A stretch of 13,511 bases of DNA. Origin: Candidatus Binatia bacterium. Its GTDB lineage: Bacteria; Desulfobacterota; Binatia; Bin18. This document shows, piece by piece, positions 1 to 13,511 of this stretch (position 1 is the first letter of the stretch; the number at the start of each line of letters is the position of its first letter). The position numbers and the translations under genes are program-made. The stretch covers positions 1 through 13,511 of the forward strand of contig CAXXHG010000025.1 of assembly GCA_963666315.2 (NCBI GenBank), read 5' to 3'. The notes under the pieces are model-generated. The model did not search any database and had not been told where the DNA came from. It worked only from the letters and a program-made list of their open reading frames with translations.

Positions 1-848
1 AATTCCTTAATCCGCACCATATAGCGATCAAAACAATCTCCCAGGGTTCCAACTTCTCCGGTCCCAACCGGCACCTCAAAGTCTAATTCGGGATAAACAG
101 AATACGGTTCATCCCGGCGGACATCATACTGAAATCCGCAGCCGCGCAGGTTGGGGCCAACTAGATTGTAGTTGATGGCCTCTTCTTTACTGATCACGGC
201 GACATTGGCTAGGCGTTGAACGTAGATCTTATTATAGGAAATGAGGTCATTATACTCATCGATCAGGGATCCAAACTGATCGAGGAAGGCCGTCACCTTC
301 TCTGTATACCCGGGCGGCAGATCCCAGGCCACTCCGCCAATACGCATATAATTAAAGGTCAAACGCGCGCCACACAGGTCTTCAAGCAAGTCGTTGACTT
401 TTTCTCGCTCGCGCAGCGCATGCGTAAACGGGGTCATACCACCGATATCCATGGCCATCGTGCCAACCGAGAGCAAGTGGCTGGCAATGCGGCCTAACTC
501 GCAGGCAATGACTCGACAGAACTCTCCTCGTCTAGGGACTTCGATCCCCGCAGCGCGCTCACAGACTATAGCCCAGCCCTGGTTACACTGCATGGCCGAA
601 ACATAATCGACCCGGTCCGTATAGGGCATGAAACCGTGATAGCCGACCTTTTCAGATATTTTCTCTATCGAACGGTGGAGATAGCCGACATCGGGGATGG
701 CTGTGCGCATGATTTCACCATCAGCCTTTACGATAAAACGCAGCACACCGTGAGTACTCGGATGTTGAGGCCCCATATTCAGGGTCATCTCTTCCGTTGC
801 TATGCCATCATCGCGTTGGACTTCAAATTCATACCCCGCCAGGCTCAT
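1..848 (-). CDS. nuoD: NADH-quinone oxidoreductase subunit D (5' part; runs off the left edge)
   Basis: Not in the ORF track because its stop lies outside the window. Manual translation from ATG at 848 (SD GGAGGAG just upstream) gives [38 protein letters not shown]...[10 protein letters not shown]...YTDRVDYV...ELGRIASHL...[14 protein letters not shown]...GDCFDRY, open to base 1. [17 protein letters not shown] and DRxDY are NuoD hallmarks. Confidence 0.97.
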
Positions 849-923
849 ACACTCCTCCAGCTTTGGACTTGAAAAAATATCGCTCTAAAAAAGAGTATGC
901 AGAGATAGAACACAAGCGTCCGT

Positions 924-1418
924 CTATTTCAGCAGGCTCTCTCTGCGCGTGCTGATGCCATGGTATTCTTCAGGCTCAACAAAATCTTTGCGGAGGGGAT
1001 ATCCAATCCAATCTTCCGGCATCAGCAGACGCCGCAAGTCCGAGTGTCCGCTGAACACCACGCCGAGTAAATCGTAGATTTCGCGCTCCAGCCAATTGGC
1101 AGCCTTCCACACCCTTTCAATAGAGGGCATGGTCGAGTCTTCACGCGGCACATCTATCTTGACCACAATCATGTGGCGGTGTGTATACGAATAGAGATGC
1201 AGGACAACTTGGATCTTGTCTTCTTTGAAGTAATCAACCCCAGACATATTGGACAAGCAATCGAAGGCGAGATCCGCGTCGTCGTGAAGAAACTGGCACA
1301 CTTCGACGAGAGAGGCGGGTTTAATGACAATGAAAGGGTCAAGAGCTTCTGCTTCGAAAGACTCAATAGCATCACCGCACTGGTCTTGTAATTTTCTATA
1401 TACCTCTGCAGGACTCAT
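924..1418 (-). CDS. nuoC: NADH-quinone oxidoreductase subunit C
   Basis: ANWLEREIYDLLGVVFSGHSDLRRLLMPEDWIGYPLRKDF is the 30-kDa subunit signature; the gene lies between nuoB and nuoD. Start is uncertain: ATG 1418 chosen, GTG 1427 possible. Confidence 0.95.
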   Translation of the reverse strand: MSPAEVYRKLQDQCGDAIESFEAEALDPFIVIKPASLVEVCQFLHDDADLAFDCLSNMSGVDYFKEDKIQVVLHLYSYTHRHMIVVKIDVPREDSTMPSIERVWKAANWLEREIYDLLGVVFSGHSDLRRLLMPEDWIGYPLRKDFVEPEEYHGISTRRESLLK

Positions 1419-1474
1419 AACGTACACACAGTTTCTGCGTTCGTCCTTTTATTTCGTTTGTCCTGGGCTCTCTT

Positions 1475-1975
1475 CTACGCTGCGGCTTGAGCGGCAGAGC
1501 CCTTCACCAGCCAGCGTTCCTGCATCATTTTTTCCTGCAGCTTGAGCAGGCCCTCGGTCAAGGCTTCGGGACGGGGCGGACAGCCAGGCACATACACATC
1601 AACCGGGATGACCTTATCAACACCATCACACACCGAGTAGGCTAACTGGAACAGCCCGCCACAGTTTGCGCAGCTGCCCATAGAGATGACATATTTCGGG
1701 TCGGGCATTTGGTCGTACAGAACCTTCGTACGAAGCGCCATTTTCAACGTAAGCGTCCCGGCAATAATCATCATGTCGGACTGTCTGGGCGTGGCCCGTG
1801 GGGCCGCCCCAAATCGTTCGATATCAGCCCGAGGACCGCCCGTCTGTATTAATTCAATCCCGCAGCATGCCAAACCGAACAGCATATACCAAACAGATGA
1901 TTTCCGTGTCCAATTCAAGACCTCATCCAGCTTAGTCGTCAGAACCATCTCAGGAACGCTATTAATCAGCGACAT
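1475..1975 (-). CDS. nuoB: NADH-quinone oxidoreductase subunit B (in-operon copy)
   Basis: FGLACC, PRQSD, GSCA and [13 protein letters not shown] supply all four N2 cluster cysteines. SD GGAGGAGG. Canonical position between nuoA and nuoC. Confidence 0.97.
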
Positions 1976-1984
1976 GCCTCCTCC

Positions 1985-2407
1985 TTACGCTGCCTTCTGT
2001 AATTCCGACTCCTCAGTTGCCGCCGGCTGCAGCTGTTTGATCCACTCCAGGTCTCGTTTGACCCACACATACACCAGGCCGACAATCAGAATGCCGAGGA
2101 ATAGCAAGATTTCAGTTAACGCAAACAACCCCTGTCCATTCAGCAGCCATGCTCGGAACGCCACTGCAACCGGAAAAATAAAAGCGACTTCGACTTCAAA
2201 GATAACAAAAATAAGCGCGACCAGATAAAAACGAATATTAAAGTTGATCCAGGCACCACCCGTAGGCGGCTCTCCACATTCGTACGTGGTCAGTTTCTTC
2301 GCTTCCGGATTATGCGGGCGCAGCAGCTTGCCGATCGCGAGCTGAACGGCACAGAAACCAATCGCCAGGATCGAAAACACAAGCACGTTCGCAAGATTAA
2401 ACGCCAC
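1985..2407 (-). CDS. nuoA: NADH-quinone oxidoreductase subunit A
   Basis: Three hydrophobic segments, KLTTYECGEPP loop, RFYLVALIFVIFEVE and C-terminal WVKRDLEW. GTG start with AGGAG upstream. Confidence 0.96.
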   Translation of the reverse strand: MAFNLANVLVFSILAIGFCAVQLAIGKLLRPHNPEAKKLTTYECGEPPTGGAWINFNIRFYLVALIFVIFEVEVAFIFPVAVAFRAWLLNGQGLFALTEILLFLGILIVGLVYVWVKRDLEWIKQLQPAATEESELQKAA

Positions 2408-2485
2408 TGTAAAAGCTCCTTCTGCCGGATCAGGCTCCTCAACATCTCCGCTATCACAGCGGGAGACTTTTCACCCCTCTCACCT

Positions 2486-3019
2486 TCAAAGCAACGGCTC
2501 AACAGGCTGATAACGAGCAGCCTCTCTATATCTCCCCTGCTCCTGATGGGCAAGCTCCTCCCGCAAACCGACCTTGGGTGCTATTTGCCCAATAGAGACA
2601 CCGGCTAAATAACTCCCCAGCAGACGCTGCGCCTCCCCCCAGACTGAAATCTGGTTGCAGATCGGGTGATAACAACACGCGTGGCCGTCTTCATCCAGGC
2701 ACTCCATCAGTAAAAGCCGTCCTTCTAGGCACTCATAGACTGTTCGCACACTTATTTCCGATGCGGGTTTCTTGAGCCTAAACCCACCCCGGGCACCCAT
2801 AGACGACTCGACCAAACCACCACCGGCCAGCTGCTTCATAATCTTAGAGAGGAAATGCGCGGGAATATCCTGTTGCGTCTGAATTTCCCGCCGCGGCACG
2901 ACTCGGTCTTGCGGCTGCGCGGCCAGATAGGTGAGCGCCCGAACCGCGTAATCCACCCGCCGGCCGATGTTCATCAGGGAACTCCGCTCGGTCGAGCGCT
3001 GCGGTGTTGCTGTATCCAT
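2486..3019 (-). CDS. Rrf2-family Fe-S-binding transcriptional regulator (IscR/NsrR-like)
   Basis: DYAVRAL helix, HTH (IPAHFLSKIMKQL), wing GLVESSMGARGGFRL and Cys cluster ECLDEDGHACCYHPIC. Start placed at ATG 3019 (GAGG upstream); the Rrf2 domain proper begins at ATG 2974 (MNIGRRVDY). Confidence 0.93.
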   Translation of the reverse strand: MDTATPQRSTERSSLMNIGRRVDYAVRALTYLAAQPQDRVVPRREIQTQQDIPAHFLSKIMKQLAGGGLVESSMGARGGFRLKKPASEISVRTVYECLEGRLLLMECLDEDGHACCYHPICNQISVWGEAQRLLGSYLAGVSIGQIAPKVGLREELAHQEQGRYREAARYQPVEPLL

Positions 3020-3121
3020 AGTTCGCCTCACTTCTGACTTCCCTGCGTTACCCATTCCCCATCATAGTCTGAGCAAACACACAGGCCAAGGCCAGAAGTC
3101 CAGGGAAACTCGCGGTCTTGG

Positions 3122-3652
3122 CTAAATCTGAGCCCCACGAAATTTCTGCTTTTGGCCTTGGATTTTACGCTGTAATGCCATAAGCGCATCGAGCACATTT
3201 TCCGGACGAGGCGGGCAGCCGGGTACATAGACATCCACAGGGACAAGACGATCAATACCGGCAACCGTGGTATAATTGTCATAAAACCCGCCGGTTGCGG
3301 CACACGCCCCAAAAGCCATGACCCACTTTGGCTCGGTCATTTGCTCGTACACCCGCTGCAGTATAGGCGCCTGTCGGCAGGTCACCGTTCCAATCACCAT
3401 GAGGAGATCGGCCTGTCTTGGACTAAACCGTGGCAGCAATGCGCCGAAGCGATCAATATCGTACGGCGTCATGGACAATGACATATATTCCATTGCACAA
3501 CACGCCGTCGCGAATGGATAGGGGAAGATGGAGTATTTTCTGGCCCAGCCCAAGGCCTTGTCTAATTGGGTCAGAACGGCAGCGTCCCCAAGGAGAGCCT
3601 CCTCACCACCCTGCAGTCGCGTCGACGTTATCGACGTGGGATGATTATCCAT
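3122..3652 (-). CDS. nuoB: Second, stand-alone NuoB paralogue
   Basis: [48 protein letters not shown]. The track ORF (to 3748) overlaps iscU; the likely start is ATG 3652 after GAGAAGGT (ATG 3664 is an alternative). Confidence 0.93.
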   Translation of the reverse strand: MDNHPTSITSTRLQGGEEALLGDAAVLTQLDKALGWARKYSIFPYPFATACCAMEYMSLSMTPYDIDRFGALLPRFSPRQADLLMVIGTVTCRQAPILQRVYEQMTEPKWVMAFGACAATGGFYDNYTTVAGIDRLVPVDVYVPGCPPRPENVLDALMALQRKIQGQKQKFRGAQI

Positions 3653-3671
3653 ACCTTCTCTCATTGTTACG

Positions 3672-4085
3672 TTACGCGGCTTTGTCGGATTTGGGGACGT
3701 CCACACGACCTTTCTCCCGCCAGTCCGCCACCGCCGCCTTGATCGCATCCTCTGCTAACACCGAACAGTGTATCTTCACCGGCGGCAGCGACAGCTCTGT
3801 CACGATGTGCGTGTTCCGGATCTCATACGCCTCCGCGACCGTCTTCCCCTTCACTAACTCCGTCACATAACTCGACGACGCAATCGCCGACCCGCACCCA
3901 AACGTCTTAAACTTCGCATCCTCGATCACTTCCGTAACCGGATTGATCTTCAGCTGCAGCTTCATCACGTCCCCGCACTCCGGCGCCCCCACCACGCCCG
4001 TCCCTACGTTCTCCTCGTCTTTCCCAAAACTCCCCACGTTCTTCGGCCGCTCAAAATGCTCTATGACTTTCGCTGTGTATGCCAT
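3672..4085 (-). CDS. iscU: Fe-S cluster scaffold protein IscU
   Basis: MAY..V..HF..P.NVG, GAPECGDVMKLQ, FKTFGCGSAIAS and LPPVKIHCS: three Cys, Asp, His and the HscA-binding LPPVK motif. ATG 4085 with AAGGA upstream. Confidence 0.97.
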   Translation of the reverse strand: MAYTAKVIEHFERPKNVGSFGKDEENVGTGVVGAPECGDVMKLQLKINPVTEVIEDAKFKTFGCGSAIASSSYVTELVKGKTVAEAYEIRNTHIVTELSLPPVKIHCSVLAEDAIKAAVADWREKGRVDVPKSDKAA

Positions 4086-4147
4086 GTGAGTTTCCTTTCT
4101 GTCACCAAGAATGGTCGAACAAAAACACTTTTCGGACAACTATTTTG

Positions 4148-4177
4148 ATAATAGAGTTATAGAGTCTAACTTGTCAA
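4148..4177 (-). promoter_or_regulatory. Sigma70-type promoter for iscU-nuoB2-rrf2-nuo: TTGACA-N18-TATTAT
   Basis: Perfect -35 (4172-4177) and 5/6 -10 (4148-4153) on the minus strand in an AT-rich gap, about 60 nt upstream of iscU. Confidence 0.75.
4152..4168. promoter_or_regulatory. Putative Rrf2/IscR-type operator (TAGAG-N7-GTCTA) in the iscU promoter spacer
   Basis: Near-palindrome TAGAGttatagaGTCTA. The same motif sits at the same position in the Mrp promoter (8347-8363). Confidence 0.7.
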
Positions 4178-4238
4178 CCGCGCTTCTTTTATTGGACTAC
4201 CATAGGAATTTATCTCTTAGTATCTCTTGCTTGGTCAG

Positions 4239-5015
4239 CTACCACTTCTCATATTTAACCGCTTTCCGCTCGTAGCCAGCCCCACGCAAGAGGTCCCGCA
4301 GGAGAAGAATCGGCCGCCCTATACCACAAATATAGAACTGCCGGTCGCGGCGTGTGTCATTCTGGACATAGTGCTGTTCGATATAGGGCAGCAGCGATTT
4401 TTCTACCCCGTAGCCATCAGGCCGACGAGGATGGTGCGGTTCGAGAATCGGCCTAAAAGAGAAGCGTGGATCCTGACGTTCCCAGGCTTGCCATTCAGCC
4501 CGATATAACAAGTCGCTTTCTTCTCGCGCAGCATACAGCAGCCGTGCAGTACTCTTCTCGCTGCGAGAAAGCAGGCGCTGAATCATCGAGCGAAAGGGAA
4601 TAACCCCAACTCGGTCTGCAATAAAGACGTACTCGGCGTTAAGCGGTTGATCGAGCACAAAAGTGCCCCATGGTCCGGTAAATCGGAGAACATCCGCCTC
4701 CTTCCGACTGAAAAGGTAGGCTGAGCCAGGACCATCCGCTACGCGGTTGAGACAAATTTCCAGATGCTCAGAGTCCTCAGGTAATGAAGCAATGGTATAG
4801 GCCCTGGTAATAGTCTGCTCGCCTGCTGGCAAAGAAAAGGAGAGAAATTGGCCGGGTTTAAAACTAAATTTCCGGCTGCCCTGGCTGCCAACGATATGCA
4901 GGAAAAATGAGCGGGTATCCGGGGTGCGCTCAACAATGCGCGCAATAGTTGCCTCAAAAGCCTGAGGGGAAGAGCCACATGGGGAGGACGGGGAGGATGC
5001 GCCGGCCGTTTGCAT
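4239..5015 (-). CDS. Ferredoxin-NAD(P) reductase-like FAD-binding oxidoreductase
   Basis: FKPGQF, RAYTIAS (RxYS/T FAD motif), GPGSAYL, GPWG, FYICG and C-terminal YEKW. The NAD(P)-binding loop is degenerate (IADRVGVIPF). Confidence 0.88.
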   Translation of the reverse strand: MQTAGASSPSSPCGSSPQAFEATIARIVERTPDTRSFFLHIVGSQGSRKFSFKPGQFLSFSLPAGEQTITRAYTIASLPEDSEHLEICLNRVADGPGSAYLFSRKEADVLRFTGPWGTFVLDQPLNAEYVFIADRVGVIPFRSMIQRLLSRSEKSTARLLYAAREESDLLYRAEWQAWERQDPRFSFRPILEPHHPRRPDGYGVEKSLLPYIEQHYVQNDTRRDRQFYICGIGRPILLLRDLLRGAGYERKAVKYEKW

Positions 5016-5029
5016 TGCCGCGTTCTCAA

Positions 5030-5383
5030 CTACACCTGCTGATTAATGGTGTGGCGAGGAATGAGAATCGTGACATCGCCGTCCGCCATCACGGCCTGAC
5101 AGCCTAGCCGAGATGTTGGTCGCAAACCGGGAGCCCGGTCGAGCATATCGTCCTCTTCTTCTTCATTCTCGGACAGCTGCTGCATCCCTTCAGTCACGAT
5201 TACGTGACACGTCGTGCAGGCACAATTGCCCCCGCAGGCATGCTCAAGAGCAAGCCCGTGGCCTAAAAGGATGTCGAGGATGGAGCCAGGCTCTCCATCA
5301 TGGTGAAACGGCGCTTTCGCCAGGTCACACTCAATTGTCTGTTCAGGATCTCCATTCTCAAACAGGACGCGTAATCGTGCCAT
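5030..5383 (-). CDS. fdx: ISC-type (adrenodoxin-like) [2Fe-2S] ferredoxin
   Basis: LEHACGGNCACTTCHV, EEEDDMLD, SRLGCQ and IPRHTIN match the ISC Fdx pattern C-X5-C-X2-C...C. Confidence 0.93.
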   Translation of the reverse strand: MARLRVLFENGDPEQTIECDLAKAPFHHDGEPGSILDILLGHGLALEHACGGNCACTTCHVIVTEGMQQLSENEEEEDDMLDRAPGLRPTSRLGCQAVMADGDVTILIPRHTINQQV

Positions 5384-5384
5384 T

Positions 5385-5424
5385 ATTCAACTTCGTTCAA
5401 CTTCATTCAATTTCGTTCAGCTTC
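5385..5424. repeat. Tandem repeat, 4 x 10 bp (RTTCAACTTC)
   Basis: attcaacttc gttcaacttc attcaatttc gttcagcttc, abutting the fdx start codon. Confidence 0.9.
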
Positions 5425-5430
5425 GAATCA

Positions 5431-5472
5431 GTGACGTGTCACCAGTGCCGTGTCACCAGCGACGTGTCACCA
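5431..5472. repeat. Tandem repeat, 3 x 14 bp (GTGACGTGTCACCA)
   Basis: gtgacgtgtcacca gtgccgtgtcacca gcgacgtgtcacca. The consensus contains the palindrome GTGAC-GT-GTCAC. Confidence 0.9.
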
Positions 5473-5524
5473 GGGCGGCAACCCGCCTTTCTCTCCTGCT
5501 CTGCTTGGAGGGTCTCGGGTTGCG

Positions 5525-6598
5525 TTACTGTAAGGTCGTGGTTTGCCCGTCTCGCGTCTCGACCTGCTCAAGCTGGTTGAGAACCTGTTGGGCGATCCCC
5601 AGAAAAGTCTGGCTCTGCGGATGACCCGGCTGGGCGATCACAAGCGGGGTGCCGGCATCTCCTCCGGCCATAATATCGCGCGTAAGCGGGATCTCTCCGA
5701 GTAGCGGCAGGTTAAACTGCTCAGCCATTTTGGCTCCTCCACCATGGTTGAAAATATGGGCCCGATGGCCGCAGGAACGGCACACCAGATAACTCATATT
5801 TTCAACGACCCCCAAGACAGGCACCTCGACTTCCTCGAACATCTTTATGCCTCGCTGAACGTCGAGCAGGGCGACATCCTGCGGCGTGGTGACTATCACC
5901 CCACCGGCTAACGGAGCCTTTTGCACCACGGTGAGCTGCGCATCACCCGTACCGGGTGGCAAATCCACAATAAGGATGTCTAGCTCTCCCCACTCGACCT
6001 TGGAGATGAATTCGGTCAGCAGCTTATCTATCATCGGGCCGCGCCAAATCACGGCGTGACCATCAGGAACGAGAAAGCCCATCGACATGACCCGCATGTC
6101 GTATTTCGTCACCGGGATCAGCCGTTTGTCTTCTGTACTCCTGGGCTTATCGGTAATACCCAACATGAGGGGAATGCTTGGGCCATACACATCGGCATCC
6201 ATGATCCCAATCCGTTGACCTATGTGCGCCAACGCAGCGGCAAGATTCACGGAAACCGTGGATTTACCGACACCGCCTTTCCCACTGGCAACAGCGATGA
6301 CATGCGTAACGCCTGGAATCTCGGGCTTGGACTTTGGCATTGCAGCCGGTGCAGCAGGCTGTTGGATGGCAACCTCCACCGGGACTTGGACCAACGGACT
6401 AAGCGTTTCAATAACATTCCGCCGAATATTCTCGATCACCTCCGTATTACCGGTCGAAGGGGCGAGTTCCACTACCACAGCGGCGCCACCCACGGCAATA
6501 TCTTTAACCACGCCAAAAGCGACAATATCCCGGTTAAAGCCTGGATATTTTATCTGCTTGAGGGCTTCTAATAACTCCTGCGCTGTTGGCGTTGGCAT
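5525..6598 (-). CDS. mrp: Mrp/ApbC/NBP35-family Fe-S carrier ATPase with N-terminal DUF59-like domain (copy 1)
   Basis: VASGKGGVGKST deviant Walker A, DADVYGPSIP, WRGPM, DLPPGTGD, VTTPQ and ENMSYLVCRSC (CxxC). N-terminal LKQIKYPGFNRDIV domain. Confidence 0.95.
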   Translation of the reverse strand: MPTPTAQELLEALKQIKYPGFNRDIVAFGVVKDIAVGGAAVVVELAPSTGNTEVIENIRRNVIETLSPLVQVPVEVAIQQPAAPAAMPKSKPEIPGVTHVIAVASGKGGVGKSTVSVNLAAALAHIGQRIGIMDADVYGPSIPLMLGITDKPRSTEDKRLIPVTKYDMRVMSMGFLVPDGHAVIWRGPMIDKLLTEFISKVEWGELDILIVDLPPGTGDAQLTVVQKAPLAGGVIVTTPQDVALLDVQRGIKMFEEVEVPVLGVVENMSYLVCRSCGHRAHIFNHGGGAKMAEQFNLPLLGEIPLTRDIMAGGDAGTPLVIAQPGHPQSQTFLGIAQQVLNQLEQVETRDGQTTTLQ

Positions 6599-6608
6599 AA
6601 ATGAACCT

Positions 6609-6959
6609 TTACTGCGCTTCGTCTGGGCTATTACGGCTTGCTAAGCTGTCGCTCAACTCCCGCAGGTATTCAAACGTGTATATCCCGGTTTCATGCCCGT
6701 CATTCCAGGTCGGATTGACGGCATAATTCCCCACCAGATTGACGCTCACCAGCTGTGGGTCTTCCACCTGGGTAAAACGGCGCTCCCCGCCGTGCCCTTG
6801 GCACACGGCGCACGGACACCAGCCGCGCAGATACGCAAATGGATAATCGCTCATGACATCATCGTCCCAGAGCACGCGAAGCATGTTTTCTTCCGGAATC
6901 GGAGTGAGAAGGATGGGCGTTGGCATACGGGCTATCCTTATCTGACCCTTATCATTCAT
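6609..6959 (-). CDS. DUF971 / GBBH-like N-terminal domain protein
   Basis: W.D...S.Y....LRGWCPCAVC...VGNYAV...WNDGHETGIYTFEYLREL is the DUF971 pattern. ATG 6959 overlaps the upstream mrp stop (ATGA); ATG 6926 (AAGGA upstream) is an alternative start. Confidence 0.92.
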   Translation of the reverse strand: MNDKGQIRIARMPTPILLTPIPEENMLRVLWDDDVMSDYPFAYLRGWCPCAVCQGHGGERRFTQVEDPQLVSVNLVGNYAVNPTWNDGHETGIYTFEYLRELSDSLASRNSPDEAQ

Positions 6960-8026
6960 ACCGAGTGCACGGAGTGTTGCAGCTGCATTTCCTCTGCTTC
7001 CACCACCTGTCTCGCAATACTACAAAATTCCTGGGCAACCGGGTGCTCAGGGTCAGCAACAATAATCGGCTTGCCCGCATCACCCCCAATCCGGACCTCT
7101 TCTACAAGGGGGATTTCGCCCAGGACTTTGAGTCCCGTCTTCTGCGCGCCGCCATGGCCGAATACGTCTTCTTTCTCCTGGCACACCGGACACTGGTAGA
7201 AACTCATATTCTCAATCACGCCAAGAATCGGCACCTTGACTTGATTAAACATGGCGATGCCCCGTTGGACATCAAGCAACGCCACATCCTGTGGAGTGGT
7301 CACAATGACGCCACCGTGCAGCGGAACCTCCTGGGTGAGCGTTAGTGCAATATCGCCGGTCCCTGGCGGGAGATCCACCACCAAATAGTCCAACTCGCCC
7401 CAGATGACGTCGCGCAGGAACTGACGAACAATACCCATGACAATCGGGCCACGCCAAATTGCCGGAGATTCATCGTCGAGAAAAAATCCCATGGAAATGA
7501 GGCTCACCCCATACTTTTCGACCGGATAAATCTTCTTGTCTTGGCCAGCACGCGGCGTTGCCTCAGCGCCCATCATGAGTGGGACACTCGGCCCGTAGAT
7601 ATCTGCATCCAAAAGACCGACCGTATTCCCCAACGAACCCAGCGCCAACGCCAGGTTCACCGCAACGGTCGATTTCCCGACCCCGCCCTTTCCGCTGGCC
7701 ACGGCAAGAATCCGCTGGACGCCCGGAATATCGGCTCGCTCTCGAACGGCTGGGTTGCCAGCTTTACCGGATGGGCCTTGCCCCACCTGAGGAGCGACTG
7801 CGTGTATATGGACGTGCTCGATCCCTGGCAGCCGGGTAAGCTCTTGCGTGATGCGTCCACGCAGATGTCGCAGGACCTCTTCTTTCATGCTGCTCGCCCG
7901 GATCTGAATGACAACGCTGTCCGCTTGGACCTCGACCTTGCCAACCAGCCCGAGTGTCACAATATCCCGCGGGGAGCCGGGATAGGAAATCTGCTTGAGT
8001 CGTTGGATAATGTCTTGTTCGCTCAC
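6956..8026 (-). CDS. mrp: Mrp/ApbC/NBP35-family Fe-S carrier ATPase with N-terminal DUF59-like domain (copy 2)
   Basis: VASGKGGVGKST, DADIYGPSVP, WRGP, DLPPGTGD, VTTPQ and ENMSFYQCPVC. Start moved from 8050 to GTG 8026, which has GAGGAG 9 nt upstream. Confidence 0.95.
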   Translation of the reverse strand: MSEQDIIQRLKQISYPGSPRDIVTLGLVGKVEVQADSVVIQIRASSMKEEVLRHLRGRITQELTRLPGIEHVHIHAVAPQVGQGPSGKAGNPAVRERADIPGVQRILAVASGKGGVGKSTVAVNLALALGSLGNTVGLLDADIYGPSVPLMMGAEATPRAGQDKKIYPVEKYGVSLISMGFFLDDESPAIWRGPIVMGIVRQFLRDVIWGELDYLVVDLPPGTGDIALTLTQEVPLHGGVIVTTPQDVALLDVQRGIAMFNQVKVPILGVIENMSFYQCPVCQEKEDVFGHGGAQKTGLKVLGEIPLVEEVRIGGDAGKPIIVADPEHPVAQEFCSIARQVVEAEEMQLQHSVHSV

Positions 8027-8280
8027 CGAAGGATACTCCTCAACCTGCACGTCAGGACTCGGTCGCCGTTCTGTCGCCCTCTATATAGACTACTCGGTGG
8101 GAGCTGCTTTAGGCTGCAGCAGGAAGCCACAGCAGACAAGCAGACGCATGTCTTGGTAGAAAAGAATTGTGAGTGTTTCTTCTGTTGATACAAGCCGTGG
8201 CGCCGCACCGTCGAAATCTTCTGTGCAAATTTTTTGTGAATATTTTTGGCCCAACCTGCAAACTCGCCCGATATTCCCAC

Positions 8281-8297
8281 TGGACGGTTTTGGTCAC
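8281..8297. promoter_or_regulatory. Possible third operator copy (TGGAC-N7-GTCAC) in the mrp leader
   Basis: tggacggttttggtcac has the same GAC-N7-GTC core, about 45-60 bp downstream of the predicted -10. Confidence 0.45.
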
Positions 8298-8342
8298 TAG
8301 GCTCTCATGGTCCTCGTGTTTTGTGGGAAGCTTGACCTTTTT

Positions 8343-8372
8343 AAAATAGACCTATAGCGTCCACATTGTCAA
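8343..8372 (-). promoter_or_regulatory. Sigma70-type promoter TTGACA-N18-TATTTT for the mrp-DUF971-mrp-fdx-FNR unit, with operator TAGAC-N7-GTCCA (8347-8363) in the spacer
   Basis: Perfect -35 at 8367-8372 (minus strand). 8338-8374 matches the iscU promoter 4143-4179 at 29/37 positions without gaps. Confidence 0.7.
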
Positions 8373-8426
8373 CCCCAAAAGGTCATGGGGTTACCCTGCC
8401 CACTCTATCCGAAAGAGATCTGTATT

Positions 8427-10199
8427 TTAAAAGGGCCACGCATAGGGGATACAGACCATGGAGACAACAAAAAGAATGATCTTGAGCGGGAGTCCGATCT
8501 TGATGAAATCAAGAAAACGATACCCTCCGGCTCCGTACACCATCAGGTTGGTATGGTAGCCAAGTGGGGAAGCGAAGCTGGAGGATGCAGCAACTGTCAC
8601 GGCAATGGCAAACGGTCTCGCATCCACCCCAAATTGGCGCGCAGCCTCGCAGGCAATAGGAAAAACAAGCACCACAGCTGCCGCGTTTGATATCACTTCC
8701 GAGAAGACCGACGTCGCCAGATAGACGGCGGCAAGCACGCCAATAGGGCCCAAGCCGGCACCCACATCCACCAATATTGAGGCCAGAACTTCTGCAGCCC
8801 CAGTTTTATCCACGGCTTTCCCAATACCAAATGCAGCAGCGATTAAGAGCAGGACCGACATGTCCACAACGCCACGCGTTTCCCCGATCGACAAGCAGCC
8901 CAACATGACAACAGTAGATGCAGCTAAAAGCGCTGCCGTCACCATAGGCAGGATACCCGCGGTGACAGTCACCACAAGCACGATCAAGACAAGCAGAGCG
9001 GGAACCGCTTTGTCATAGCGGGGCGGCGCACTATCGTGCACCTCAGACACTAAGTAAAAATCGGGAGAATTACGATACGCACGCGCGAATTCAGATGACG
9101 CCTCCAAGAGGAGGGTATCTCCTACGTGCAGAATAATATCGCCGATCTTTCCGCTGATCCGCTGTCCTCCGCGATGGACGGCGACAACCGCAGCACCATA
9201 ACGCGTTCGGAAGTTGGCATCCCGGATCGTACTCCCCATTAAGGGAGAATCCTCAGAAATAACGGCCTCGCTCAAATTCGCTCGTTCAAGAAAGTGCTCC
9301 CGACCATCCCGGTGCTCCCCAGAAGGAATCAGTCCTCGGATTTTCTGCAGATCAACAATGGTTGACACAACACCCGTAAACACCATCCGGTCGCCAACTT
9401 GAATGCGCTCTTGAGGTCCGACCGGAGCCACCATTTTTTCTACGCGCTCAATACTGATCAAAAACAGGCCGGGCAGATGGCGCAAGCCGGCCTGCTCCAC
9501 CCGCTGTCCAACTAGGGGACATTCTGTTGTGACCTCCAGCTCAACAAGATACTCTCGAGGGCTCTCCTCGATCTGCTCAATCAATCCTTTTCGATCAGGC
9601 AGTAGGTGCCAGCCAACAAACGTAATAAAGGTGAGGCCGACCAGAGCGCACGGGAGCCCGACTGCACTGAGTTCGAAAAAAGACAATCCCGGCATCCCAG
9701 CGTCTATCATCAAACTATTGCCGACTAAATTCGCCGAGGTCCCAATGAGCGTACAGGTACCGCCTAATATGGTCGCAAAGGAAAGCGGAATTAAAAAACG
9801 CGAAGGGGAGACGCCATGCCGTCGAGTCCAACCAACCACGACCGGAATGAACATGGCGACAATCGGTGTACTATTAAGAAATGCCGACGCTCCAGCAACA
9901 GGAATCATCATTCTCACCAGCGAGCGGCGCGCACTTTTAATTTGGCCAAAGATGCGTGTGGCTACAAATTCAAGAGCGCCGGTATGTTGGAGTGCGCCTG
10001 CAACTACAAACAGCGCCCCAATAGATACGATGCCGGAATTGGAAAAACCCACCAGGGCCTCTTCTGGAGTTAAGACACCGGCAGCAAGTAAAAGCGCCAC
10101 CAGACCCAGAAAAATCAAATCGGGAGCCAAGACTTCACGGATCAATGCCGCTATACCAAGCCCAGTGATCCCAAGAGTAAACCACGCTTCCCAACTCAT
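8427..10199 (-). CDS. SLC13/CitMHS-family permease with central TrkA-C domains (YfbS/SLT-like anion transporter)
   Basis: N-terminal TM block with SAFLNSTPIV and GGTCTLIGTSANL, soluble TrkA-C repeats (CPLVGQRVEQAGLR; SPLMGSTIRDANFRTRYGAAVVAVHRGG), C-terminal SNAA and SPLGYHTNLMVYGAGGYRFLDFIKIG. Start ATG 10199 preferred over GTG 10229. The substrate cannot be read from the sequence. Confidence 0.92.
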   Translation of the reverse strand: MSWEAWFTLGITGLGIAALIREVLAPDLIFLGLVALLLAAGVLTPEEALVGFSNSGIVSIGALFVVAGALQHTGALEFVATRIFGQIKSARRSLVRMMIPVAGASAFLNSTPIVAMFIPVVVGWTRRHGVSPSRFLIPLSFATILGGTCTLIGTSANLVGNSLMIDAGMPGLSFFELSAVGLPCALVGLTFITFVGWHLLPDRKGLIEQIEESPREYLVELEVTTECPLVGQRVEQAGLRHLPGLFLISIERVEKMVAPVGPQERIQVGDRMVFTGVVSTIVDLQKIRGLIPSGEHRDGREHFLERANLSEAVISEDSPLMGSTIRDANFRTRYGAAVVAVHRGGQRISGKIGDIILHVGDTLLLEASSEFARAYRNSPDFYLVSEVHDSAPPRYDKAVPALLVLIVLVVTVTAGILPMVTAALLAASTVVMLGCLSIGETRGVVDMSVLLLIAAAFGIGKAVDKTGAAEVLASILVDVGAGLGPIGVLAAVYLATSVFSEVISNAAAVVLVFPIACEAARQFGVDARPFAIAVTVAASSSFASPLGYHTNLMVYGAGGYRFLDFIKIGLPLKIILFVVSMVCIPYAWPF

Positions 10200-10291
10200 A
10201 CTGCTCGTATCCTTCTTCTCATCTGGCACATCCTCTAGCCGCTCTTCAAGGCAGGTCCGTATAAATGGCGCACGATAGCGCGTCGATCCCT

Positions 10292-10321
10292 ATAATACTA
10301 GGAACTCTCGACCTGCCTCAA
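10292..10321 (-). promoter_or_regulatory. Possible promoter for the SLC13 gene: TTGAGG-N18-TATTAT
   Basis: Moderate consensus match about 90 nt upstream of the start; no other support. Confidence 0.3.
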
Positions 10322-10664
10322 TACGATCGTCAAGAAGACCGTATTGAGTGCCTTGAGGGGGGGTATACTCGACATAAAGAGAGGGAGAATAAAAGAGAGT
10401 CGCGCTCTCTAGACTGTCAACGGAGCAAAGTCTTCGCACACGGCACATGTCACGCTGTTCGGACACAGCATGGCATAGGCCGTCAATAGGCACAGCGAAA
10501 GTGTCTCTATTCGGCGCAGTTGCATGACTTTCGTCTGCTCTCTTAAGGCTAGAATATAGTGTATGCAATTTTTATAAAAAAGAAAAGATTTTTAGCATGT
10601 CCAGCTGCCTTGCCGTCCTCATATTTTCAGGTCACAATGGCACAGGGCGGAAGAGGAGAGAGAC

Positions 10665-11252
10665 ATGCGGCGGAATTGGCGCGCACGACTGACACCGTTT
10701 CAGCAACGGATCTATGATCGCAGCACCACGATCGCAACCATTGAATTTGATCCAACACCGCAACTCTACGCTGCAGTGAAGACATTGTCTGGTGCCCTCG
10801 CTGTAGCAGAGCAGTCACGCGTAGCGACCCTGTCACAAACAATCGTCAATCACATCTGCTGGCGGCTGGGGGTGCACACGGTACAGGTCCGGGTACATGG
10901 GATACGTCCCTCAAACCGCCGTGGAGAGCTGCACGGACTCTATACGCAATACAGCGGCGGCAGCAAAAACGACTCGATTCAAGTATGGATGCGAACGGCG
11001 AAACGGCAGCAGACGGTCGCTTTTCGGACATTCTTGCGTACCCTCCTGCACGAAGTCTGCCATCATTTGGACTACACCTATTTCCATTTTCGAGAATCCT
11101 ACCACACGGAAGGCTTCTTCCAGCGCGAGTCGAGTCTTTTCAGAGCTTTGGTCGCCCCACCATCGCAGTCGCCACAGCCCCCGGCTCAATCTCTCTCCTC
11201 TCTGGTGAAGGAAATCCTTACCCCACAGGCAGTGCATCACCAAGACCAATAG
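10665..11252 (+). CDS. Hypothetical zincin-like (HEXXH) metalloprotein, SprT/Wss1-like motif arrangement
   Basis: SD GGAG before ATG. LHGLY...IQVW...TLLHEVCHHLDY followed by YHTEGFF (candidate third His). No signal peptide; Pro/Gln-rich tail. Confidence 0.75.
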   Translation: MRRNWRARLTPFQQRIYDRSTTIATIEFDPTPQLYAAVKTLSGALAVAEQSRVATLSQTIVNHICWRLGVHTVQVRVHGIRPSNRRGELHGLYTQYSGGSKNDSIQVWMRTAKRQQTVAFRTFLRTLLHEVCHHLDYTYFHFRESYHTEGFFQRESSLFRALVAPPSQSPQPPAQSLSSLVKEILTPQAVHHQDQ

Positions 11253-11274
11253 GACCAATAGGACTAATAAGACC
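11244..11274. repeat. Tandem repeat, about 3.4 x 9 bp (GACCAATAG)
   Basis: gaccaatag gaccaatag gactaataa gacc. The first unit supplies the TAG stop of the 10665 ORF. Confidence 0.85.
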
Positions 11275-11356
11275 GGCGCGCGGCATAGACGAGTAACGCC
11301 GCTGCAGCACAGGAACAAAAGGGACAACCCCATACGCCAATACGGCCGGCAGCCCT

Positions 11357-12069
11357 CTAGTTATGCCCCCGTGACATGCGTTGCTCGACTTCTCGGAGTC
11401 GGCGTTTGGCGTGCGGATTCCCCGGTTCATAGCGCAACACGTGGCACAGTTCCGCCGCAGTACGATACTTTTGACCCATCTGAGAGTACGTCCCGGCAAG
11501 TTCAAAATGCGCGCACGGACTCTCAGGACACTGCCGGAGTCCGCATAGCGTAGGCCTACACGATCCGCCTCCAACTCTTGGTCTTGTTTAAAGTGGTTCA
11601 GAAAGAGCTGGCCGAGCATCCCAGCTGCCAATCCTCCCCCAGGAAAAACGGCACTGGCCAAGCTACTCCCGATACTCAAGAGCGCATTATTCGTCGTCCC
11701 GCATGATGCATGTCCTTGCGCAATATGGTCCAGTTCGTGACCGAGAATTAGAGCTAATTCATCATCCGAACGTAAAAACTGTATCATTCCAAAGGAGACC
11801 ATAACTTTTCCATAGGTCGCCCCAGCGTTAATTGAAGCTTCTTCAGCGGCCAGGATAAATTGGACAAGGGGCGGTTGTGGGACAGACTCAAGCAAGCGGC
11901 GCGCAACCCGCTCGATCTGATCGACTTGCTGCTGGGAGCGGGCGTAGTCCTGCGGTGCGATGCGCCTCGACTCATGGGCAGTTTGGGCGGTGACCCGAGC
12001 GGCAACAATTCCATGAGTGGCGAAGAGACCACACAGAGCGATAGCACTCGCTACAATCCAGTGTCGCAT
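11357..12069 (-). pseudogene. M48-family metallopeptidase plus TPR (BepA/YfgC-like), internally deleted and frameshifted
   Basis: ATG 12069, signal-like N-terminus, INAGA, DDELALILGHELDH and QDQELEADRVGLRYA, after which similarity ends near 11544. A different frame (11542-11357) encodes a TPR-like tail GLRQCPESPCAHFELAGTYSQMG...VLRYEPGNPHAKRRLREVEQRMSRGHN*. Confidence 0.75.
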
Positions 12070-12089
12070 CCTGTCTTCCTTTTCCTTTG

Positions 12090-12098
12090 TGCTATAGT
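12090..12098 (+). promoter_or_regulatory. Possible extended -10 promoter (TGcTATAGT) for asnS
   Basis: Lies in the 71-bp divergent gap, about 40 nt upstream of asnS; no good -35. Confidence 0.35.
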
Positions 12099-12140
12099 GC
12101 ATCTCTCACACGCACACCACAACCCAAGAAAGGGATACGT

Positions 12141-13436
12141 ATGCCTGAGTGGGTTTATGTCCGAAATATTGCACAATGCGAAGGGCAAGAAGTTGAACTT
12201 CGCGGCTGGCTGTATAGCAAGCGCTCCAGCGGGAAATTGCATTTTCTTCAAGTCCGGGACGGCACAGGTACGATCCAATGTGTGCTGTTCAAAGGCGAAG
12301 TCTCTGACGAGATTTTTGCCTTAGGGCATACTCTGACCCAAGAATCTTCCGTCATTGTGAAGGGCACTGTGCGAGCCGATACTCGTTCTGCCATTGGATT
12401 TGAACTCGGCGTCACACATCTAGAGATCGCTCAGCAGGCCCACGACTATCCCATTACGCCCAAGGAGCATGGAGTTGCCTTTCTGTTGGATCATCGTCAT
12501 CTCTGGCTGCGCTCTGCGCGGCAGCATGCCCTGCTGCGCATCCGCAGTGAAGTCATCAAAGCCAGTCGGGACTACTTCGATGATCATGGTTTTACCCTCC
12601 TGGATGCCCCGATCTTTACGCCTGCCGCGTGTGAAGGCACGAGCACGCTTTTTCCGGTCGAGTATTTCGATGAGACAGTCTATCTCACCCAAAGTGGCCA
12701 GCTCTATATGGAAGCCGGCGCAATGGCGTTTGGCAAGGTCTACTGCTGTGGCCCAACCTTTCGCGCCGAGAAATCCAAAACGCGCCGTCATCTGACTGAG
12801 TTCTGGATGATTGAGCCCGAAGTTGCCTACTGCGACTTGAATGACGACATGGATCTGGCCGAAGACTTTCTTGAATCCGTCATTCAGCGTGTCCTGGCAC
12901 ACCGTCAGGTCGAGCTGAAAGCGCTTGAGCGCGACACCACAAAGCTGGCTCAGGTCAAGAAGCCGTTCCCGCGTATTAGCTACGGCGAGGCCATTGAACG
13001 ACTCCAAGCCAAAGGCGTCGATATTCAATGGGGAGACGACTTCGGCGGCAATGATGAGACCCTTTTGTCACAACAATTTGACCGTCCGGTCATGGTGCAT
13101 CGCTATCCCACAGAGAGCAAAGCCTTCTATATGAAGACCGATCCTAACGATGCAAAAGTCGCGCTGTGCATGGATGTCTTAGCGCCGGAAGGCTACGGCG
13201 AAATCATCGGCGGCGGACAGCGCGAAGATGACCTGTCCGTACTACAGGACAAGATCCGTGCGCAGGATCTGGCAGAAGAAACCTTCTCTTGGTACCTCGA
13301 CCTGAGACGCTACGGTTCCGTCCCCCATGCTGGTTTCGGCATGGGCATTGAGCGCATGGTCACCTGGCTGTGCGGCCTGCATCACGTGCGCGAATCGATT
13401 CCGTTTCCGAGGATGCTGGAGCGGGTGACACCATAG
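12141..13436 (+). CDS. asnS: Asparagine--tRNA ligase
   Basis: OB fold ([16 protein letters not shown]), [26 protein letters not shown], motif 2 [26 protein letters not shown] and motif 3 [18 protein letters not shown] 12141 with AAGGGA upstream. Confidence 0.97.
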
Positions 13437-13511
13437 TTTCCTCTTCTTCAGATAGGATACGACTCGCCCCAGGACCGTGGACACTTCGTCTCGTCACAAG
13501 CGTTGCACGCG

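Follow-up and report, generated by a model that had tools for sequence, protein, structure and literature searches.

A nuoB gene embedded in an ISC-type iron-sulfur assembly operon of Binatota

An assembly operon with nuoB between scaffold and regulator

Contig CAXXHG010000025.1 of a Candidatus Binatia bacterium, analyzed here from position 1 to 13,511 (the whole stretch is referred to as the window), carries an iron-sulfur cluster (ISC)-type assembly operon in which a gene for the complex I subunit NuoB lies between the genes for the IscU scaffold and an Rrf2-family regulator. This gene, nuoB2, is not inside the nuo operon, which follows immediately downstream and contains a NuoB gene of its own, nuoB1. 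Besides nuoB2, the operon is distinguished by a split HCF101-like carrier and a candidate Rrf2 operator of its own. Full-text literature searches turned up no paper in which nuoB is described as part of an isc operon; a review that came up has NuoB in its reference list only. We give a little more than even weight to the interpretation that this is an iron-sulfur (Fe-S) assembly operon of two transcription units with one operator, serving a general ISC route and having NuoB as a co-regulated client. The machinery is probably not dedicated exclusively to complex I.

Pfam and NCBIfam profiles, run on the 16 open reading frames (ORFs) of at least 100 amino acids in the window, confirmed the identities that the initial annotation had given to 12 closely spaced genes on the minus strand, in the order mrp2, DUF971, mrp1, fdx, FNR, iscU, nuoB2, rrf2, nuoA, nuoB1, nuoC, and nuoD. 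The gaps between them are, in this order, -4, 10, 141, 14, 153, 7, 102, 78, 9, 47, and 75 nt, and no intrinsic terminator was predicted in any intergenic gap of the cluster. The genes at the center of the arrangement are iscU (3672-4085; TIGR01999, 202 bits against a cut-off of 192), nuoB2 (3122-3664), and rrf2 (2486-3019; PF02082, 112 bits against a cut-off of 30). The most likely start of rrf2 is ATG 3019, since the peptide ending in ERSSLMN survives in relatives via synonymous changes.

Among 8000 candidate relatives of NuoB2 that were scored, the best 120 have 77-93% identity, and those that carry a name are Candidatus Binataceae NuoB proteins. A search that took one genome per species confirmed 555 NuoB2 relatives, from which the best 80 loci were kept, nearly all of them from metagenome genomes labelled Binatia, Binatota, or the old "Deltaproteobacteria". 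All window proteins were searched against these 80 loci. The taxon labels of L001, L011, L012, L014, L055, and L070 (Enterobacteriaceae, Klebsiella pneumoniae, Methylomirabilota, Limnocylindria, Verrucomicrobiia) conflict with a Binatia-like gene content, and these are probably mislabelled bins.

Fe-S genes are present in 14 of the 80 related loci (L001-L014). The layout of the window, Fe-S genes followed by nuoA-nuoB1-nuoC-nuoD, is repeated in L001-L007, with L003 and L006 cut at the 5' side. L008, L010, and L012-L014 contain mrp2-DUF971-mrp1-fdx-FNR-iscU-nuoB2-rrf2, followed in L008, L013, and L014 by a tRNA-like sequence, tig, clpP, clpX, lon, rplM, and rpsI. L009 and L011 have iscU-nuoB2-rrf2 only, with a divergent sigma-factor gene, an MFS transporter gene, and phoH upstream. 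While these flanks differ, iscU, nuoB2, and rrf2 are found together in all 14 Fe-S loci (L003 begins inside iscU). The gap between iscU and nuoB2 is about 75 nt or less in 13/13 loci measured, and the one between nuoB2 and rrf2 is 25-35 nt in L002-L007. All seven of the loci L008-L014 have a gene for a 101-aa stand-alone DUF59/FeS_assembly_P (SufT-like) protein between nuoB2 and rrf2 (L008:6191-6496), which neither the window nor L001-L007 has. This leaves operator-iscU-nuoB2-(DUF59)-rrf2 as the invariant core.

The neighbors of this core are less constant. The mrp-DUF971-mrp-fdx-FNR unit precedes iscU in 12 of 14 informative cases (the window is counted and L003 is cut), and nuoA-N follows rrf2 in 8 of 14 (the window and L001-L007, L010 being cut), so that the nuo junction is confined to the sub-clade of the window and is absent in six loci, L008, L009, and L011-L014. 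Conservation of the linkage between Fe-S and nuo genes in relatives was the test that the initial annotation had set for its proposal, and the outcome is divided: nuoB2 is present in every one of the Fe-S loci, but nuoA-N in only those eight cases.

Identity and origin of NuoB2

NuoB2 scores above the NCBIfam cut-offs of NF011392 (274 bits, cut-off 271) and TIGR01957 (202 bits, cut-off 143) and resembles solved NuoB/Nqo6/NdhK chains over the whole core, the best being Nqo6 of T. thermophilus (2.5e-49). We aligned 80 sequences, from the window and 79 loci, to which NuoB2 is 71-94% identical, and the four Cys of cluster N2 (C55, C56, C121, C150), set in the CCxxE, C, and CP pattern of the Oxidored_q6 fold, are invariant in all of them. 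L063 was excluded for an internal stop; its nuoB2 orthologue (L063:10001-10507) is a pseudogene or reflects an assembly error. NuoB2 and NuoB1 of the window share 42% identity.

None of the operon's Fe-S genes is found in the other 66 loci, nor do nuoA, C, D, H, J, L, or M occur within 10 kb. Instead, the nuoB2 orthologue is followed by nuoF in 48 of them and then by a short nuoG (~530 aa) in 46, the other two being cut; these neighbors were checked by Pfam on L018, L019, L053, and L067. Among the 18 loci where nuoF is not a neighbor, nuoB2 stands alone in 15 (with at least 1.2 kb downstream) and the sequence is cut in 3. Complex I genes thus appear scattered in Binatota. The nuoB-nuoF-short nuoG loci are L015-L061, L067, L071, L072, and L074 (for example L018:9968-13451); they lack nuoE and membrane-arm genes over a distance of 10 kb and are often preceded by a gene for a Zn-dependent alcohol dehydrogenase. 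A 136-aa ORF before nuoB2 in L018 was considered as nuoA and rejected, having no Pfam match and a lipoprotein-like sequence.

A quick maximum-likelihood tree with NuoB1 as the root places the ISC-linked copies together in a clade (15 rows, SH-aLRT 84) that falls within the nuoF-nuoG-linked copies, and it groups the stand-alone copies in a second clade of their own with support of 100. The branches of the ISC-linked clade are short, and no residue specific to it was found at any alignment position. This topology indicates a single capture of nuoB2 by the isc unit. The gene nuoB2 is native to the lineage and was passed down by vertical inheritance. On the simplest reading of the alignment and tree, it relocated a single time from beside nuoF-nuoG to iscU, and its product would be the ordinary NuoB of an NADH-type enzyme with scattered genes, its job unchanged. 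No IscU-NuoB fusion was present among the best 120 of 2313 longer NuoB relatives. A different fusion occurs in P0129, P0133, P0137, and P0140, where another Fe-S enzyme, lipoyl synthase (LIAS_N plus radical SAM), is joined to a NuoB domain with 58-60% identity to NuoB2.

One origin of the junction, as in the NuoB2 tree, is also what would be expected of a genomic accident, in which nuoB2 landed beside iscU once, the nuo junction was a second accident, and the coupling consists of shared transcription only. Binatota scatter their nuo genes anyway, as the 15 solitary nuoB2 orthologues and the lack of the listed nuo genes within 10 kb in any of the 66 other loci illustrate, and the sequence of NuoB2 did not change with its new context. 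We nevertheless regard accident as unlikely. The iscU-nuoB2-rrf2 trio has stayed contiguous with very short gaps while its upstream and downstream neighbors changed at least twice, and it has persisted across a divergence that reaches down to ~50% identity in the FNR-like protein. In L008-L014, moreover, nuoB2 is placed between iscU and yet another Fe-S assembly gene, DUF59. Since a NuoB gene has been kept between scaffold and regulator through several rearrangements, pure accident is hard to credit.

Two promoters with a shared operator

Two sigma-70-type promoters on the minus strand were identified by promoter scan and conservation: P(mrp2), with TTGACA-18-TATTTT at 8343..8372, and P(iscU), with TTGACA-18-TATTAT at 4148..4177. 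The scan of the window by itself was not above chance (11 sites, compared with 8.2 +/- 2.6 in shuffles), and we consider the two promoters real because they are conserved in relatives. Both contain a 17-bp palindrome within the spacer, TGGACGCTATAGGTCTA at 8347-8363 (-) in P(mrp2) and TAGACTCTATAACTCTA at 4152-4168 (-) in P(iscU). The initial annotation had called the promoters near-identical, which overstates a 78% identity over their 37-nt blocks; that there are two of them, kept in relatives and sharing an operator, is well borne out.

The operator consensus is TRGACYYTANNNSTCTA, a 17-bp palindrome with half-sites TAGAC/GTCTA between -35 and -10. Upstream of iscU, the -35 element, palindrome, and -10 element have been kept while the flanks drifted in all 13 related loci that have the region, and the operator pattern is exact in 13/13. 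The P(mrp2) copy in the window has 1 mismatch to the consensus, and upstream of mrp2 the operator is found with no more than 1 mismatch in 6 of the 8 related loci having this region; the exceptions are L005, with two mismatches, and L010, which has none there and an IscS-like gene instead. At up to 2 mismatches the window contains exactly 2 sites, both inside promoter spacers, and at up to 1 mismatch no further sites were found in the 1,243,659 nt of the 80 loci searched on both strands. A weak promoter-like site before rrf2 (3089..3061) was rejected, as it is not kept in relatives, where rrf2 follows nuoB2 after just 25-35 nt.

Repressors classically bind palindromes placed between -35 and -10. 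The obvious candidate to bind the one found here is the operon's own Rrf2 protein. This protein satisfies PF02082, falls below all equivalog cut-offs (IscR, RirA, NsrR, CymR), and is divergent, with only a distant likeness to IscR (1e-6). Across 14 sequences it has three invariant Cys and a fourth of shifting position. We regard it as a candidate Fe-S-sensing repressor of P(mrp2) and P(iscU), to which the operator is provisionally assigned.

Between P(mrp2) and mrp2 lies an untranslated leader of ~310 nt (8027..8342, minus strand). A leader of this length is common to the window and L001 only, that of the other relatives being ~100-230 nt. No conserved ORF was found in it, and neither the leader nor the rest of the window matched an Rfam family at gathering thresholds. 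ORFs of 85 and 62 aa within the leader were rejected as genes, since they are broken in L001.

Scaffold, electron supply, and carriers

Canonical IscU scaffolds are marked by three Cys, an Asp, a His, and the LPPVK chaperone motif. In the IscU encoded here, C37, D39, C64, H106, C107, and LPPVK are invariant in 14 sequences. A prediction of an IscU-NuoB2 complex gave a score of 0.00, which, obtained without controls, counts neither for nor against binding.

The gene fdx (5030-5383, minus strand) encodes a [2Fe-2S] ferredoxin, probably of the adrenodoxin/ISC type, whose best family is TIGR02007 fdx_isc (1e-31; 109 bits, under the cut-off of 132) and whose Cys pattern, C-x5-C-x2-C...C, is invariant. 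The gene for an FNR-like flavoprotein (4239-5015, minus strand) has FAD_binding_6 and NAD_binding_1 domains, and the nearest proteins are reductase components of oxygenases, NqrF, and ferredoxin-NADP reductases. From its adjacency to fdx, at a distance of 14 nt, it is presumed to be an NAD(P)H:ferredoxin reductase.

Both Mrp proteins, Mrp2 (6956-8050, minus strand; FeS_assembly_P plus NUBPL/ParA ATPase, 2.4e-96) and Mrp1 (5525-6598, minus strand; NUBPL/ParA ATPase, 1.5e-102), begin with a DUF59/FSCA domain, share GKGGVGKS as their deviant Walker A motif, and have a CxxC toward the C-terminus, which is CPVC in Mrp2 and CRSC in Mrp1. The two are 47% identical. Their PF10609 scores are 322 and 343 bits, and with the ApbC model NF008669 they reach 320 and 331 bits, just under its cut-off of 348. 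The likely start of mrp2 is GTG 8026, since the upstream GTG is out of frame in L001. The DUF971 protein gene (6609-6959, minus strand; PF06155, 1.1e-23) overlaps the end of mrp2 by 4 nt, and its motif RGWCPCAxCQGH is invariant in the ten sequences aligned. When longer relatives were collected from the database, 25 of 27 had the DUF971 domain fused to a ParA/NUBPL ATPase, and one had it fused to DUF59. HCF101 is defined as a DUF59-ParA-DUF971 fusion with a CxCxxC motif (PMC7980591). In the window these domains are not on one polypeptide and are divided between two overlapping genes. Given that their joint domain set is that of HCF101, together with the CxCxxC motif and the fused relatives, Mrp2 plus DUF971 is, to judge by its domains, a split HCF101-like carrier and not a fused member of the family.

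The initial annotation had also reported that iscS, iscA, hscA/B, and suf genes are missing from the window, and this holds: none of these families was matched by Pfam or NCBIfam among the 16 ORFs, and the gaps are too small for an extra gene. In 1 of the 14 related loci a gene for an IscS-like desulfurase is found directly upstream of mrp2. This gene (L010:3-917), separated from mrp2 by 115 nt, encodes an IscS-like class V aminotransferase (Aminotran_5) with an SGSACTS loop. An IscU of canonical type that retains LPPVK, the IscS-like gene of L010, and the housekeeping neighbors in half of the loci suggest a general ISC route. The scaffold, electron chain, and carrier logic that was originally proposed fits the gene set.

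The adjacent nuo operon

Downstream of rrf2, the genes nuoA (1985-2407), nuoB1 (1475-1975), nuoC (924-1427), and nuoD (3-848; first 282 codons, cut by the end of the window), all recognized by Pfam/NCBIfam on the minus strand, form the start of the nuo operon. NuoB1 satisfies the NuoB family criteria, and its nearest solved relatives are the Paracoccus and mitochondrial PSST subunits. In L001 and L007 nuoD is directly followed by nuoH, I, and J, a gap the size of nuoK, nuoL, and nuoM, with no nuoE, F, or G. Read from these two loci, the adjacent operon is of the 11-subunit, NuoEFG-less type, with a NuoB of its own. Its NuoL is 725-729 aa long (L001:16770-18947; L007:16663-18852), ~100 residues longer than NuoL of E. 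coli and Thermus at ~610 aa.

The gap between rrf2 and nuoA measures 78 nt in the window and ranges over 66-113 nt. It contains no predicted promoter, operator, or terminator in the window and no promoter conserved by eye in relatives, and eight sequences gave no consensus RNA structure; an operator upstream of nuoA was likewise not found at up to 2 mismatches in the window. Read-through from P(iscU) into nuoA is possible.

A more ambitious interpretation, advanced in the initial annotation, is that the scaffold, the electron chain, and the two Mrp carriers are a line whose specific or principal client is complex I, which would make it the bacterial equivalent of the mitochondrial ISC-to-Ind1-to-complex I route. 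Complex I needs many 4Fe-4S clusters, and a set that lacks IscA and HscBA but has two [4Fe-4S]-type carriers together with ferredoxin and a reductase suits the making of such clusters. The part of this proposal that stands is the stable residence of nuoB2 in the Fe-S operon, between iscU and rrf2 in every one of the 14 Fe-S loci; nuoA-N lies directly downstream in 8 of the 14 informative cases, and MrpORP sets a precedent, being a bacterial Mrp whose gene is clustered with those of its client (PMC6345978). The dedication itself fares less well. Six of the 14 cases have lost the nuoA-N linkage, the core of L009 and L011 has no mrp-to-FNR unit next to it, and the nuo operon has its own NuoB and no operator. 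IscU is fully canonical with LPPVK kept, and an IscS-like gene adjoins the operon in L010. Dedication is, besides, a functional property, which lies beyond sequence tests. We therefore judge a line of this kind to be not likely.

That L001 and L007 have no nuoE, F, or G in the nuo operon beside the Fe-S genes also bears on the role of the ferredoxin. Ferredoxin feeds photosynthetic NDH-1, and it is conceivable that the ferredoxin and FNR-like reductase are an electron-input module, from NAD(P)H via ferredoxin to NuoI/NuoB, of a complex I without NuoEFG. The two genes are on the same strand ~2.6 kb upstream, and 11-subunit enzymes are thought to use other donors (PMC11238625). This is very unlikely all the same, for fdx and the FNR-like gene are kept in L008, L010, and L012-L014, where no nuo operon follows, they belong to a unit with the Mrp carriers under the shared operator, and the best family of the ferredoxin is the ISC-type fdx.

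NuoB2 might also be an alternative isoform, taking the place of NuoB1 in the neighboring complex whenever Fe-S supply is disturbed. Both nuoB genes lie within 1.7 kb in the window and L001-L007, and nuoB2 is under a presumed Fe-S-responsive promoter, while nuoB1 is not. We consider such a replacement extremely improbable. The two proteins, at 42% identity, are separated by a very long distance on the tree, nuoB1 is missing from the vicinity in six ISC-linked loci, and NuoB2 orthologues elsewhere pair with nuoF-nuoG, which indicates a different, NADH-type enzyme.

Proposed mechanism

Under the general ISC reading, the operon would work as two units with one switch. The first, from P(mrp2), would supply the split HCF101-like carrier (Mrp2 plus DUF971), the second Mrp carrier, the probable ISC-type ferredoxin, and the FNR-type reductase. 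The second, from P(iscU), would supply the IscU scaffold, NuoB2, whose gene begins 7 nt later, and the Rrf2 regulator with its cysteine cluster. While it holds its own Fe-S cluster, the Rrf2 protein would occupy the 17-bp palindrome of both promoters and repress them; a shortage of clusters would release it, and scaffold, electron supply, carriers, and apo-NuoB2 would be made together. Formation of 4Fe-4S clusters on IscU is reductive, and the electrons would pass from NAD(P)H through the FNR-like protein and ferredoxin to IscU. The Mrp carriers would then hand the clusters on, with NuoB2, translated from the same message as IscU, as an early client. NuoB2 is expected to carry cluster N2 and so would be matured beside its source.

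Several points weigh against this interpretation. That Rrf2 binds the operator, that it represses, and that the genes are co-transcribed are predictions from the sequence. All related loci were found with NuoB2 as bait, which places Fe-S operons lacking nuoB2 outside the sample and biases any statement that nuoB2 is always in the operon. The capture happened once in evolution, and common descent, more than selection, may account for part of its persistence. The iron-sparing logic of E. coli is the opposite of raising a cluster-consuming subunit when clusters are scarce. Finally, the inventory covers the window and the related loci, and another IscU or SUF system, iscS, hscBA, and the genes for the complex that NuoB2 joins may lie elsewhere in the genome.

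A stronger version of the model is that N2 is inserted at the scaffold by way of the coupled IscU-NuoB2 message, with Mrp2-DUF971 and Mrp1 serving the remaining clusters of complex I. We think this quite improbable. If true, no earlier bacterial example would be known of an ISC-Mrp pipeline wired to complex I as its client; the pipeline would parallel the mitochondrial Ind1 route from an independent origin and would include a new Fe-S-sensing Rrf2 protein with its own operator.

Flanking genes and other features

The gap between mrp1 and fdx in the window is occupied by two tandem arrays (5386-5473, no strand assigned), 10 nt x4 and 14 nt x3.2, the latter containing GTGAC..GTCAC palindromes. 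The arrays are lineage-specific, and the corresponding gap in relatives is 11-111 nt.

Directly upstream of mrp2 on the same strand, L012 (2850-5637) and L008 (284-1285) have genes for a periplasmic binding protein, a FecCD permease, and an ABC ATPase, an uptake system of the iron-chelate type. In the window (8427-10229) and L001 a CitMHS/TrkA_C transporter gene is found in its place. Further along, the window encodes a conserved 195-aa protein (10665-11252, plus strand) with an HExxH motif and no Pfam match; its look-alikes are named SprT-like, a few with WLM, and it is kept beside asnS in L001, L002, L004, and L005. An M48 peptidase ORF (11218-12102, minus strand) matches its family over the first two thirds only, and its tail overlaps the neighboring gene and a 9-nt x3.4 tandem repeat (11244-11274). 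In L001 the M48 match is split in two pieces, and the ORF may contain a frameshift or be a decaying gene. Among the related loci, phoH of L011 (1993-4509) contains an intein that carries a LAGLIDADG endonuclease domain, and its L009 orthologue is uninterrupted.

Significance and comparison with known systems

Complex I has eight or nine Fe-S clusters. How these are loaded in bacterial complex I, and what Mrp/ApbC and DUF971 serve, is poorly settled, and a NuoB gene between scaffold and regulator offers a concrete, testable pair of client and machinery. The operon also provides a new candidate operator-regulator pair for Fe-S homeostasis in a phylum without cultured members. The separation of nuoB from the membrane-arm genes in Binatota matters when complex I is scored by gene co-location. 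The available excerpts of the Binatota genome paper treat complex I in general terms only (PMC8262859), those of a complex I phylogenomics paper contain nothing on accessory genes (PMC4453560), and the bacterial Mrp clients named so far, according to the excerpted text of PMC6345978, are only TcuB and the ORP complex.

The adjacent nuo operon resembles the 11-subunit complex I-like enzymes (PMC11238625) in that nuoD is directly followed by nuoH-I-J-(K)-L-M in L001 and L007. Compared with those enzymes, the window itself shows nuoA-D only, and NuoL is unusually long in L001 and L007.

Ind1/NUBPL has a role in the assembly of mitochondrial complex I (PMC7980591, PMC6345978). The window is similar in having carriers of the Mrp/NBP35 family encoded with a complex I Fe-S subunit, beside a complex I operon. 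The link of Ind1 to complex I rests on genetics, whereas that of the window system is one of gene order alone. The Mrp proteins of the window also differ from Ind1 in their N-terminal DUF59 domain, which bacterial ApbC and HCF101 have as well.

The HCF101 fusion occurs in plastids, some mitochondria, and some bacteria (PMC7980591). The window set has the same three domains and a CxCxxC in DUF971 (CPCAVC), but unlike HCF101 it is split over two genes overlapping by 4 nt and is accompanied by a second Mrp paralogue. In Desulfovibrio, MrpORP is an Mrp encoded in the cluster of its client, the ORP complex (PMC6345978), and the window likewise has a bacterial Mrp-type carrier gene clustered with a candidate Fe-S client. 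MrpORP, unlike the window Mrps, has a Di-Nase domain and transfers clusters to its partners in vitro; the window system is known from its genes.

The classical bacterial isc operon is iscR-iscS-iscU-iscA-hscB-hscA-fdx. Shared with it are a canonical IscU, a ferredoxin that is probably of the ISC type, and a regulator of the Rrf2 family with a Cys cluster, encoded in the operon that it presumably controls. In contrast to the classical operon, the window has no iscS, iscA, or hscBA, the regulator is distant from IscR and comes last in its unit instead of first, and there are two promoters, whose palindrome is not known as an IscR site. To the classical set the window adds two Mrp carriers, a DUF971 protein, a reductase, and a nuoB.

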